From NCBI GenBank assembly GCA_000775715.1, contig JRWQ01000001.1, positions 510,225 to 542,224 of the forward strand: DNA of 32,000 nucleotides, written 5' to 3'. How positions within the stretch are numbered: the stretch's first letter is position 1; each line of letters begins with the position of its first letter. Below the pieces are notes generated by a model. That model ran no database searches, was not told where the DNA came from, and saw only the letters and a list, made by a program, of their open reading frames with translations. Shown one piece after another: positions 1,772-4,278 of the stretch. A program made the position numbers and the translations under genes. Origin of the DNA: Vibrio tubiashii. Lineage in GTDB: Bacteria; Pseudomonadota; Gammaproteobacteria; Enterobacterales; Vibrionaceae.

Positions 1772-2009
1772 CTCTGCCATCAAAGATACGGTGCCGCCCG
1801 TAAAAGAAATGGACAGTTCCTATCACCTTCAATCTGTGGTTTCAGGTTTGCTTTATGCAGGTTTATTCATCACGTATGGAATACCTAGTTAATACCCGAA
1901 GAGAAAGAAAACGCTCTTAAAATAGTTACTTCTTGAGATTCGGAGACACTAATCTGGTAATGGTTTATCTAGGGTTGAGTTTAAAACTAATTATTGTTAG
2001 CTTGTCGGC

Positions 2010-2063
2010 ATGAAATGTATCACAACACCTTCATCATTTTTCTTTTGGTGGCGCTCTAACTAG
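2010..2063 (+). CDS. Candidate leader peptide MKCITTPSSFFFWWRSN (tandem Trp codons) upstream of trpS
   Basis: ATG 2010 to TAG 2061-2063, with TGG TGG at 2046-2051. The C-terminal tail WWRSN-stop resembles E. coli TrpL ...GWWRTS-stop. Overlapping alternative hairpins follow. Weakness: there is no clear SD. Confidence 0.45.
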   Translation: MKCITTPSSFFFWWRSN

Positions 2064-2161
2064 AGCGGCACGGGATTCTCACATTCTTAAGCTGCTGGAA
2101 GGTGGCTAGGACTGTGTTCTCATTATCTCCAGTAGCGATCTATTTACTAGGAGATTAAATC

Positions 2162-3184
2162 ATGAACACTAATCAACCCTCTAATAAATCAGAAATTATT
2201 TTAACAGGCGACAGAGCGACAGGTCCCTTGCATCTTGGCCACTATGTCGGCTCTCTGAAGCAGCGTGTCTCTTTGCAACATGCTCACGACCAGACTATTC
2301 TTGTCGCTGATATGCAAGGTCTAACAGATAACGCTCACAATCCCTCAAAAGTATCTTCTAATATACTTAATGTCGTCGCAGATTATCTTGCGGTAGGTAT
2401 CGACCCGAGTAAAACAACCATTTGTCTTCAGTCGCAATTACCCGCATTAGCTGAGCTAACGATGTATTACAGTAATCTTGTGACGATAGCGCGATTGGAG
2501 CGAAACCCTACCGTGAAAAGTGAGATTCAAAATAGAGGCTTTGAACGCTCTATCCCTGCTGGCTTTTTAACATACCCAATTTCTCAGGCCGCAGACATCA
2601 CAGCTTTCAACGCGACTCTCGTTCCTGTTGGGGATGACCAACTGCCTATGCTTGAACAAACAAATGAGATTGTAAGAAAAATAAATGCCCTCGCAGGAAA
2701 AACAGTTCTCAATGAATGCCGCCCACTACTAAGTAACGCACCGCGTCTACCTAGCACAGATGGAAAGAACAAGATGTCAAAATCAATGGGCAATGCAATC
2801 AACCTTGGTTTTTCTCAGAAGGAGATCAGTGCTGCTGTAAAATCAATGTATACCGACCCAAATCACTTGAAAATTGAAGATGCAGGTTGTGTTGAAGGAA
2901 ACGTTGTTTTTACCTATCTTGATGCATTTCACCCAGATTCAGACTACATCACCCAATTGAAGGAGCACTACCAACGAGGAGGTCTTGGTGATGGAACCAC
3001 AAAAAAAATCCTTGATGAATGTCTGCAAGAACTACTTCGACCTATTCGAGAGAAAAGAGCTGAACTATTAAATGATAAAGCTCAGTTAATCAACATTTTG
3101 GCTAAGGGAAGTCAGGTATCTAGAGAGAAAACTGAGAAAGTACTTTTTGATATCAAAGATATATTCGGGCTGAATATCCTCTGA
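2162..3184 (+). CDS. trpS: Tryptophan--tRNA ligase (divergent / auxiliary type)
   Basis: 340 aa. HIGH-type motif GPLHLGHYVG, KMSKS present verbatim (NKMSKSMGN), and VPVGDDQLP, all characteristic of class Ic TrpRS. SD AGGAG (2149-2153) lies 8 nt upstream. Confidence 0.9.
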   Translation: MNTNQPSNKSEIILTGDRATGPLHLGHYVGSLKQRVSLQHAHDQTILVADMQGLTDNAHNPSKVSSNILNVVADYLAVGIDPSKTTICLQSQLPALAELTMYYSNLVTIARLERNPTVKSEIQNRGFERSIPAGFLTYPISQAADITAFNATLVPVGDDQLPMLEQTNEIVRKINALAGKTVLNECRPLLSNAPRLPSTDGKNKMSKSMGNAINLGFSQKEISAAVKSMYTDPNHLKIEDAGCVEGNVVFTYLDAFHPDSDYITQLKEHYQRGGLGDGTTKKILDECLQELLRPIREKRAELLNDKAQLINILAKGSQVSREKTEKVLFDIKDIFGLNIL

Positions 3185-3474
3185 ACTGAACAGACTATGC
3201 TTCGGGAGCCTCAACTCAAACTAGTGAGTAATGCTCCCGACCTGATCCGAGTTGCATTGGCATGCAACAACCCACCACAAGCAGGCAACAAGTATGTTTA
3301 ACCGCTACAAACATCATTTCCAGTCTTTTTTGAACGTAACTTGCTGTCAATTGCAAGGTTAAGCAAAGATAACGCCATCAGGTTATCACTTAACTCAAGT
3401 AGAGTTCTGACTCACCAGATTTCCTCTAGTCTAAATGGCTTTTTGACACCTGTGTCTCTACCTTTTTTAGTCAT

Positions 3475-4278
3475 TTACTGAGGCTGACGTTTCATATCGT
3501 CATGAACCATGGCATTGTCCAGTTCGTGGATTGTACCGATACGCACACGTTTTTCCGGTGCCAGCTTTTCGTACTCAGTGAGATAGATATCGCTGTGAAT
3601 GTGCTCGGCAATCATTTTCACCAACAGGCGATTGTTGGTATATAAGCCTACCGTCTCTTCTCGATGTGAGAACATTAAGCCCTGCTTCATATCGGCAACA
3701 ATCATAAAGCGGTGGGAAGGATACTCAGTCTCTTCATTATCTGAGCGAGCGTAGAGCTCAATTTTTGGATGAGGTACCGCGATGCGATTAAATGAGAAGG
3801 CGATAATTCGCACTCCACGCTCAGCCGCCTCAATCAATTCTGCCGAGAATCTTGGGTCAAGTTGGAAGTCGGTGTTGAGGTAGATTTCGACTTGAGCTAA
3901 CTCGATCACCTCTTTGGCTTTCTGGACTAAGTTGTCGATACCAGTGACGTTGTACACAAACTCTTTTTCCTCAGTGAGCATCATTCGTGACAACTCTTTC
4001 TTAAGGATATGGATGTTTTCTACGGTACTCTTTTCGATCTGGTTAAAGATAAGCTCTGGAGATTTGGCTTCGTACTCTTTAGTGTCTCCATCGGACATAA
4101 AGATATAACCATTTTTGTATAGATTATCGATAGAAGAGTAGACAGAAGAACGCGACAGAGAGATATCTTTCGCGATTTTGTAGCCACTGGCACAACCGTT
4201 TTTGAGAAGGTTGATATAGACCAAGGAATCCGTTTTCGTAAAACCAAAATTCATCAACTTAGTAACCAAGTCTGACAC
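3475..4278 (-). CDS. TrmB-family sugar-responsive transcriptional regulator
   Basis: The N-terminus ...DLVTKLMNFGFTKTDSLVYINLLKNGCASGYKIAKDISLSRSSVYSSIDNLYKNGYI matches the TrmB winged-HTH pattern, followed by a ~180-aa C-terminal domain. The track ORF begins at a TTG (4302). I prefer GTG 4278, which has SD AGAGGA 6 nt upstream. Confidence 0.65.
   Translation of the reverse strand: MSDLVTKLMNFGFTKTDSLVYINLLKNGCASGYKIAKDISLSRSSVYSSIDNLYKNGYIFMSDGDTKEYEAKSPELIFNQIEKSTVENIHILKKELSRMMLTEEKEFVYNVTGIDNLVQKAKEVIELAQVEIYLNTDFQLDPRFSAELIEAAERGVRIIAFSFNRIAVPHPKIELYARSDNEETEYPSHRFMIVADMKQGLMFSHREETVGLYTNNRLLVKMIAEHIHSDIYLTEYEKLAPEKRVRIGTIHELDNAMVHDDMKRQPQ

Follow-up and report, generated by a model that had tools for sequence, protein, structure and literature searches.

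Promoter, leader ORF and gene at the trpS locus

The DNA stretch analysed here (the window: 32,000 nucleotides of Vibrio tubiashii, assembly GCA_000775715.1, contig JRWQ01000001.1, positions 510,225 to 542,224 of the forward strand) carries an auxiliary gene for a type-II tryptophanyl-tRNA synthetase (TrpRS), trpS, preceded by a short open reading frame (ORF) with two adjacent Trp codons and by a set of alternative RNA helices that extend to the Shine-Dalgarno (SD) sequence of the gene. It is likely that this leader is a ribosome-mediated Trp-codon switch that controls translation initiation of the auxiliary TrpRS. The promoter, the leader ORF and the gene comprise the following features, numbered from the first base of the window.

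1975-1980, plus strand: -35 hexamer TTGAGT; TTGnnn is found 17 nt upstream of the -10 in 84/85 distinct promoter regions
1995-2003, plus strand: extended -10 TGtTAGCTT, with TG at 1995-1996 and the -10 at 1998-2003, ending 6 nt before the leader ATG
2010-2063, plus strand: leader ORF of 17 codons and UAG, encoding MKCITTPSSFFFWWRSN and a stop; in frame in 99/101 related loci
2046-2051, plus strand: tandem Trp codons, the proposed stall site; TGGTGG is invariant (88/88 aligned sequences)
2149-2153, plus strand: trpS Shine-Dalgarno sequence AGGAG; GGAG is nearly invariant in the alignment
2162-3184, plus strand: auxiliary type-II tryptophanyl-tRNA synthetase, 340 aa (TIGR00233, 234 bits, cut-off 176.75)

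The gene product has the HLGH and KMSKS motifs, and its closest solved structures are those of D. radiodurans TrpRS II (1YI8 and 2A4M, E 1e-104), TrpRS of the Bacillus/E. coli type being matched at E 1e-34 or weaker. The genome has two trpS genes, of which this is the second; the canonical copy (357 bits) lies on another contig, and the two products share 27% identity.

The initial annotation, made from the letters of the window alone, had proposed a ribosome-mediated Trp attenuator upstream of trpS. The parts that it named, namely a 17-codon ORF, tandem TGG codons at 2046-2051, a TAG at 2061-2063 and an AGGAG at 2149-2153, are all present on the plus strand, the frame running from the ATG at 2010-2012 to the TAG at 2061-2063. 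Furthermore, the ORF with its frame, its two Trp codons (WW) and its stop, as well as the alternative helices described below, are conserved and covary in an alignment of 88 distinct orthologous leader sequences drawn from 101 related loci, on which the conservation and covariation counts of this text are based. A WW leader was found at 20/21 loci in a genus search, the lone exception being a 3' gene fragment, and at 79/80 loci in a species-wide search, where the exception has unrelated DNA upstream and a contig end. In an uncultured Vibrio contig (L031), unrelated DNA stands where the leader would be. In total, leader and RNA are conserved across at least 10 genera, including Vibrio, Photobacterium, Alteromonas, Shewanella and Pseudoalteromonas.

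The length of the leader varies from 16 to 23 codons (17 codons in 60/88), with indel lengths divisible by three. The stop codon stands three codons past WW in 83 of the 88 leaders and is UAG in 82. The codon that follows WW is CGC, UGC or CAC (R, C or H), and where it differs, the 3' arm of helix 1:2 has changed to match (see below); in the same way, the group of Paraglaciecola, Glaciecola and Colwellia has exchanged the stop UAG for UGA, with the neighbouring pair flipped (CGCUCA...UGAGCG). Outside WW and the Ser, the peptide varies freely: 19 different tails follow WW and 19 different residue pairs precede it. As the residue changes after WW and the switch of the stop codon both follow the pairing of helix 1:2, the alignment indicates that what selection maintains is the frame, both Trp codons, the place of the stop and the ability of the RNA to pair, and not the peptide sequence.

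This pattern bears on the idea of an arrest peptide of the TnaC type, which would sense free Trp or a drug in the exit tunnel and stall the ribosome at the stop codon. The leader is indeed short, has a conserved Trp near its stop codon and carries FF directly before WW in 54/88 sequences; the key residues of TnaC are W12, D16 and P24. An arrest peptide is nevertheless extremely unlikely here, given that the residues beyond WW and Ser vary as the RNA pairing does, that the tail reads R/C/H-S-x with no Pro or Asp at TnaC-like spacing, and that a ribosome arrested on the stop codon would hide segment 2 of the RNA, which is the same RNA state as that without a stall.

Upstream of the leader, a TTGnnn, a 17-nt spacer and a TAnnnT are found together in 84/85 distinct upstream sequences, with the TG extension in 75, and the TAnnnT is present in 85/86 promoter regions. 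The distance from the -10 to the ATG is 6 nt in 64 sequences and 7 nt in 15 (together 79/85 promoters), and counting 7 nt on from the -10 leads to the first base of the leader AUG (A2010). Since the conserved -10 ends only 6-7 nt before the ATG, a leaderless leader mRNA is predicted, with transcription probably starting at or next to A2010. A start of this kind would leave no room for an SD and would explain why the leader lacks a convincing one, a caveat that the initial annotation had attached to its own proposal. Leaderless mRNAs are rare in Gammaproteobacteria. The promoter spacer (1981-1994 in the window) is itself conserved in many genera, reading TTTCAAAAnnATTnTTG in many sequences and TTTAAAACTAATTATTG here, and could be the operator of some other regulator; promoter and spacer were found to be without a CTAG-type box (TrpR operator) such as precedes the genome's own trp leader.

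Alternative RNA helices between leader and SD

Downstream of the Trp codons, the RNA can form several helices from a few shared segments, which are listed below with the fraction of the alignment in which they are paired. ON and OFF refer to the fold in which the trpS SD is free and to that in which it is buried, respectively.

2048-2050/2069-2071 and 2052-2057/2062-2067, plus strand: helix 1:2; -15.3 kcal/mol; 98.7% paired; C-G replaced by U-A in 15 sequences
2064-2069, plus strand: segment 2, AGCGGC; can pair with segment 3 (2091-2096) in place of segment 1, 97.3% paired
2072-2076/2083-2087, plus strand: small hairpin A; 92-97% paired, one covarying pair; only in the ON fold, together with helix 3:4
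2080-2116, plus strand: hairpin B, of the OFF fold; -14.3 kcal/mol; 85.6% paired; 10 pairs with double changes
2091-2104, plus strand: segment 3, the hub, GCUGCUGGAAGGUG; three partners, namely segment 2, 2101-2106 and segment 4
2124-2136, plus strand: segment 4, containing the anti-SD CUCC; two partners, segment 3 or the SD region
2125-2130/2150-2155 and 2131-2135/2144-2148, plus strand: SD-sequestering hairpin 4:5; 89.5% paired, 4 covarying pairs; -9 to -10.5 kcal/mol

Helix 1:2 overlaps the Trp, Arg and Ser codons, with the stop codon lying within its loop and 3' arm. Segment 2 can instead pair with segment 3 (helix 2:3, 2064-2069/2091-2096); in this helix one double change was observed, and a G-U pair has become A-U or G-C in 25 sequences. 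Hairpin B consists of a lower stem (2080-2089/2107-2116) and, above it, of segment 3 (2091-2096) paired with 2101-2106. Helix 3:4 has 13 bp, made of 2091-2099/2128-2136 and, across a bulged A, of 2101-2104/2124-2127; its pairing reaches 96.1%, 6 of its pairs covary (in one of them, C-G replaces U-A in 14 sequences), and it spans the whole anti-SD, so that the SD is free when it is formed. In hairpin 4:5, which is part of both the minimum free energy (MFE) fold and the centroid fold, CUCC (2127-2130) pairs with GGAG (2150-2153), burying the trpS SD; at equilibrium the median probability that the SD is unpaired is about 0.001. Helices 1:2 and 2:3, hairpin B, helix 3:4 and hairpin 4:5 share segments and provide mutually exclusive alternatives, while hairpin A was present in every prediction of the ON state.

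The MFE fold of 2000-2165 consists of three hairpins and has a z-score of -2.35 against shuffled sequences. Covariation was controlled with 500 shuffles of the alignment and with partners slid along it. Pairing amounts to 86-99% in all five helices, and their compensatory changes lie well above both kinds of control: the observed covariation score was reached by 0/500 shuffles in every helix test, and slid partners were 20-65% paired. RNAalifold, run independently, gave a consensus made of helix 1:2 and helix 3:4. The three pairings that the initial annotation had read by eye thus hold, with some extension. Its first stem (2048-2056/2063-2071) is present as 2048-2057/2062-2071, its AGCGGC (2064-2069) is complementary to GCUGCU (2091-2096), as it had stated, and its 9-bp stem with one G-U (2091-2099/2128-2136) is the core of the 13-bp helix, which would act against sequestration. 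Hairpin 4:5 (2125-2155), hairpin B (2080-2116), the 4-bp extension of helix 3:4 and the promoter abutting the ATG are additional to it.

A covariance model built from the OFF fold has one match in the 4.1-Mb genome (E 8e-34); of 151 genomes of the order, 14 have a match, a single one each and always directly upstream of a type-II trpS; judging from these searches, the RNA element accompanies type-II trpS one-to-one. In the window, no Rfam family was matched at its gathering threshold, and the Trp leader family RF00513 had no match in 1600-2300 even at E up to 10; there was likewise no Rfam match to a T-box riboswitch at the trpS leader.

An RNA that is so highly structured and conserved could also be thought to work without translation of the leader, by binding a protein (for example in TrpRS autoregulation, as in thrS) or a tRNA, the more so as leader translation is deduced from sequence. 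This is, however, very unlikely: the frame is kept through multiple-of-three indels in leaders of 16-23 codons, the ATG stands at a fixed distance from the -10, the stop is kept even where its sequence changes, and neither a T-box nor any other Rfam family was matched.

Probable translational output and direction of the switch

The possibility of intrinsic termination was assessed with the d-score of d'Aubenton-Carafa. At hairpin B this score is below zero in 88/88 sequences (mean -53); the corresponding values are +10.7 for the trp attenuator that the genome itself has and +6 to +15 for true terminators. A pattern scan of the window found no terminator at the leader position, and none of the hairpins there has a proper U-tract behind it. 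Because no hairpin scores as a terminator, the analysis supports the trpS SD as the regulated output, at the level of translation and not of termination. The initial annotation had remarked on the missing U-tract and had named translational control as one option; of its options, this is the one that the SD-burying hairpin 4:5 and the missing terminator favour.

It is unlikely that premature termination of the classical attenuator kind, be it intrinsic (at hairpin B) or caused by Rho (in the untranslated leader or the gene), is the main output and that masking of the SD is secondary. Hairpin B is homologous to the real terminators of relatives on an E. coli plasmid and in Aeromonas (see below), a U-rich stretch follows it by a few bases in many sequences of the Vibrio type, and untranslated trpS mRNA would, as a general rule, be open to Rho. 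Set against this are the uniformly negative d-scores, the terminator scan, which finds none at hairpin B, a 12-nt insertion that separates hairpin B from the U-rich stretch in one Vibrio subgroup, and the fact that the helix between anti-SD and SD and its competitor both covary, which termination alone would not require. As untranslated mRNA is open to Rho, a secondary action of Rho may nevertheless be added to the control of the SD.

The element can be regarded with high confidence, on the grounds of its conservation and covariation, as a Trp-codon switch sensed by the ribosome and acting on the trpS SD. For its operation we infer the following course, from the transcription start and the translation of the leader to the stall, the sign of the response and the kinetics. 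A sigma-70 promoter with an extended -10 would start the transcript at the A of the leader AUG, and the 17-codon leader would be read as a leaderless mRNA. With charged tRNA-Trp in plentiful supply, the ribosome would reach the UAG and cover segment 2, and after its release helix 1:2 would lock segment 2 away. Without a stall, segment 3 would thus fold into hairpin B and segment 4 would pair with the SD (hairpin 4:5), leaving trpS OFF. With charged tRNA-Trp scarce, be it through Trp starvation or through inhibition of the housekeeping TrpRS, the ribosome would wait at UGG UGG with segment 1 inside it and segment 2 free just beyond it, available for pairing with segment 3 once this is made. The 2:3 pairing would block hairpin B and leave GGAAGGUA single-stranded; the emerging segment 4 would nucleate on GGAAGGUA and displace segment 2, giving the 13-bp helix 3:4. 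This helix would occupy the anti-SD, leaving the SD open, trpS ON and the choice kinetically locked. The spacing is compatible with this scheme: segment 2 starts 15 nt past the first base of the second Trp codon in 80/88 sequences and, from the size of the ribosome footprint, would lie just outside a ribosome waiting for Trp-tRNA and inside a ribosome at the stop codon.

In translational attenuation of the ermC/cat type, a leader peptide, a stall and the refolding of a hairpin release a sequestered SD, as is likewise proposed for trpS. There, unlike in the trpS element, a ribosome-bound drug causes a stall that is nascent-peptide-dependent, the freed segment 2 has the anti-SD segment as its direct partner, and the whole is a four-segment equilibrium switch. 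An equilibrium model of the ermC kind was dropped for trpS, the energy difference between the 3:4 and 4:5 folds being independent of the position of the ribosome. Two further candidates were set aside. Capture of the anti-SD by the freed 3' half of hairpin B was ruled out, a forced helix 2:3 leaving the SD closed, and a predicted pairing of the SD with the leader UUCUUC (Phe) codons in the 3:4 fold was abandoned, the two codons before WW varying widely.

Several results weigh against the proposed mechanism. In equilibrium tests, in which the leader was masked to imitate a ribosome on the first Trp codon, on the second or on the stop codon, the SD stayed paired in most sequences, with a probability of being unpaired near 0. 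With helix 2:3 forced, the SD was still closed (mean probability 0.03), and under every mask the 4:5 fold was more stable than the 3:4 fold by 2-4 kcal/mol. Helix 2:3 itself shows a single double compensatory change, and constraints from helices 1:2 and 3:4 could partly explain its conservation. The main weakness is that a pseudoknotted route, in which the lower stem of hairpin B forms while 2:3 persists, could seat hairpin B before segment 4 is made.

As there is no equilibrium switch, the switch works only if it is kinetic. Barriers were computed with findpath along direct paths between nested structures; they are given as medians over the 88 sequences, are upper bounds and ignore pseudoknots. 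When segment 5 is not yet made, the 3:4 fold (-21.4 kcal/mol) is better by 5.6 kcal/mol than the fold with hairpin B (-15.8 kcal/mol), and the barrier towards 3:4 is 17.5 kcal/mol from hairpin B and 5.3 kcal/mol from the 2:3 state. The latter barrier is low because, with 2:3 formed, GGAAGGUA (2097-2104) is single-stranded and offers segment 4 a place to nucleate, from which segment 2 can be displaced. In the full RNA, the passage from the 3:4 fold to hairpin B with 4:5, that is from ON to OFF, has a barrier of 22.5 kcal/mol.

The direction of the response is best judged from distant relatives. Five records of type-II trpS genes that are 61-64% identical were examined, from the E. coli IncFIB plasmid pB379_2, Aeromonas caviae, Salinivibrio, Proteus mirabilis and Variovorax. 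A WW leader precedes the gene in 5/5, namely MNRNVVISHLRRWWLPA, MNMTSFNHNYWWCCF, ...FRTQWWRAL, ...IQNWWRFI and ...AFSWWHG. All five keep, from different sequences, a helix 1:2, a 3:3' hairpin and an SD-burying helix; in all five, segment 2 is complementary to segment 3 (GGCGGC/GCCGCC), and a downstream segment 4 is complementary to segment 3 (-14.7 to -22 kcal/mol). In the E. coli plasmid, the 3:3' hairpin is CAAAGCCGCCGGAAGGCGGCUUUG followed by UUGUUUCU, a clear terminator (d-score +14.7) that is visibly homologous to the apex of hairpin B, GCUGCUGGAAGGUGGC; in Aeromonas the d-score of this hairpin is +6.3. The family therefore appears to have a two-lock design, in which a terminator is combined with an SD mask against leaky read-through, and the terminator seems to have been lost in the branch of Vibrio and the Alteromonadales.

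With a true terminator at 3:3' in these relatives, helix 2:3 can there only be an antiterminator, and the read-through RNA is translatable only if segment 4 takes segment 3; stalling would therefore turn trpS on, a conclusion that is held with moderate to good confidence. The opposite sign has also been considered. Helix 3:4 would then form co-transcriptionally by default and keep trpS ON, and a stall would free segment 2 to capture segment 3, upon which segment 4 would bury the SD, so that TrpRS would be turned off when charging is scarce. Simple chain logic makes 2:3 and 3:4 mutually exclusive, the combination of 2:3 and 4:5 is more stable at equilibrium than the 3:4 fold, and before segment 5 is made the 3:4 fold is favoured over hairpin B, all of which would suit such a scheme. 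We know of no precedent, however, for switching off a TrpRS when charging fails. Moreover, hairpin B precedes segment 4 and the barrier of about 17.5 kcal/mol from it to 3:4 makes the default OFF, and in relatives of the terminator type 2:3 must antiterminate, so that the gene would never be expressed if a stall also masked the SD. The auxiliary paralog of Streptomyces, to judge from the titles cited in PMC9437257 and PMC4787780, is induced. On balance, a switch that turns TrpRS off upon stalling is improbable.

Known systems, distribution and possible mobility

The initial annotation had likened the tail of the leader peptide to that of E. coli TrpL. The likeness stands in so far as the geometry WWR-x-x-stop is concerned, and does not extend to membership in the Rfam family Trp_leader (RF00513). 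Indeed, the trpS leader shares with E. coli trpL the codons UGG UGG CGC, the stop three codons on, between segments 1 and 2, and the alternatives 1:2 and 2:3. It differs in giving no match to RF00513 (gathering threshold 41 bits), in having 17 codons against 41 in this genome's own trpL, in being probably leaderless, in lacking a terminator and in having five segments with an SD-masking hairpin. The genome's own trp operon leader matches RF00513 at 73 bits, and the trpS site is absent from that genome search. This trp control region (contig 3, L106 1520-1720, minus strand) has a TrpR-box-like AGTTAACTAGTAC and a classical strong terminator, and its 41-codon leader MLQDIKQNHKVKVTADVMNNSSAELAWWRTWTSSWWANVYF has five Trp codons (WWRTW...WW).

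An attenuator with a Trp-codon leader has been predicted before the auxiliary, antibiotic-resistant trpRS1 of Streptomyces (PMC1262725), and attenuation of Streptomyces trpRS1 is the subject of Vecchione and Sello 2010, according to the title cited in PMC4787780. Like the V. tubiashii gene, Streptomyces coelicolor trpRS1 and S. avermitilis trpS2 combine a Trp-codon leader with an auxiliary TrpRS beside a housekeeping TrpRS, and the Streptomyces paralog is induced when charging of tRNA-Trp fails, according to PMC1262725, PMC9437257 and Vecchione and Sello 2010 as cited in PMC4787780. The two types, which are compared by description, differ in that descriptions of the Streptomyces element present a terminator-based transcriptional attenuator of the classical kind, whereas the Vibrio type is without a terminator and acts on the SD through two extra segments.

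Other leaders share single traits with the trpS element. Mycobacterial leaderless short ORFs with poly-Cys attenuate translation through sequestration of the ribosome-binding site (bioRxiv 10.1101/834739); in this 'Cys ribulon', as proposed here, a ribosome stalled on a leaderless short ORF prevents the sequestering structure. The amino acid, taxon and targets differ (Cys, Actinobacteria and metabolic operons there; Trp, Gammaproteobacteria and a synthetase here), and the stalled ribosome of the 'Cys ribulon' blocks the sequestering duplex directly, whereas here a relay of three alternative helices would be involved. In E. coli, a synthetase operon, pheST (mentioned in PMC1262725), is likewise under leader-peptide attenuation through the PheM leader, with a terminator. 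In B. subtilis rtpLP, three Trp codons control translation initiation of anti-TRAP; unlike in the trpS element, the terminating ribosome covers the next SD and no RNA refolding takes part, according to Chen and Yanofsky 2003/2004 as cited in PMC10327191. The trp attenuator transcript of S. meliloti has been described as leaderless (PMC6614838). In the literature searched, no description of a trpS leader element in Vibrio or other Gammaproteobacteria was found, and the element is absent from Rfam 15.

If confirmed, the element would constitute a well-defined RNA family outside Rfam that accompanies type-II trpS across Proteobacteria, a rare leaderless regulatory ORF in Gammaproteobacteria and a testable example of a kinetically locked strand-displacement switch. 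It would also present one leader design on two platforms, with a terminator and an SD lock in enterobacterial plasmids and Aeromonas versus an SD lock alone in Vibrio and the Alteromonadales, and hence a case for studying how the output of an attenuator changes. The scheme predicts that the spare synthetase is made when charging of tRNA-Trp fails, which bears on the protection of marine bacteria and of plasmid-bearing enterobacteria against natural TrpRS inhibitors.

The paralog is patchily distributed, occurring in 16/36 other Vibrio genomes and in 1/24 genomes of the other families sampled; among 400 genomes drawn across the class, a protein search yielded just 2 more with type-II trpS and added nothing on the leader. 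It is 82-86% identical across Vibrio, Alteromonas, Paraglaciecola, Shewanella, Agarivorans and others, and some genomes have two or three copies. Two full cassettes of leader and trpS are found in some Vibrio genomes, sometimes on both chromosomes, along with truncated copies (L005, L022 and L024 in one genome; L012 and L023 in another; L025 and L065). Homology between genomes sets in near the promoter, at 1955-1975 or further downstream, and stops with trpS at 3184, except among the closest relatives, in which it covers 1805-3292. The conservation of promoter, leader and gene in varying surroundings suggests that these three have spread horizontally as one unit.

In the paralog, window positions 2285-2308 encode ADMQGLT, with Gln where the housekeeping TrpS has His (VDLHAIT). 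This site is the position of Bacillus His43, and D. radiodurans TrpRS II likewise has Gln there. In Bacillus TrpRS, an H43N change gives resistance to indolmycin (PMC4899734), and the Gln at this position is a hint, suggestive only, that the paralog is resistant to indolmycin.

A broader reading may tentatively be offered, although it is less probable than not. The 1.2-kb unit, from the promoter over the leaderless WW leader and the five-segment RNA to the type-II trpS, could be a self-contained, horizontally mobile cassette for inducible resistance to natural TrpRS inhibitors, such as the indolmycin of marine Pseudoalteromonas. It would sense the inhibition of the housekeeping enzyme through stalling and store the event as a one-shot co-transcriptional RNA 'memory', segment 2 serving as a transient chaperone that holds the toehold until it is displaced by segment 4, with the ON fold then locked for the life of the mRNA.

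With regard to plasmids, relatives of the cassette are already found on segments of enterobacterial plasmids flanked by insertion sequences (IS). The gene of pB379_2 (NZ_CP090457.1, 118674-119681) lies between copies of IS26 and IS1 and adjoins a diguanylate cyclase gene, and similar type-II trpS genes are present on plasmids of Klebsiella and Shigella. Staphylococcus accounts for 23/92 matches in the plasmid collection, all below 60% identity.

Downstream of trpS, no intrinsic terminator was found in 3185-3475, where two hairpins (about 3203-3241 and 3251-3268) are without U-tracts. Upstream, on the minus strand, a strong terminator-like hairpin with a U-tract is present at 1745-1775, with no credible gene feeding into it. 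The only Rfam matches below threshold, judged spurious, are at 1726-1866 on the strand opposite to trpS, among them a weak likeness to the small RNA Aar (25.9 bits against a gathering threshold of 60); this region falls outside the conserved trpS cassette. The gene that follows trpS is convergent with it and encodes a TrmB-like regulator.

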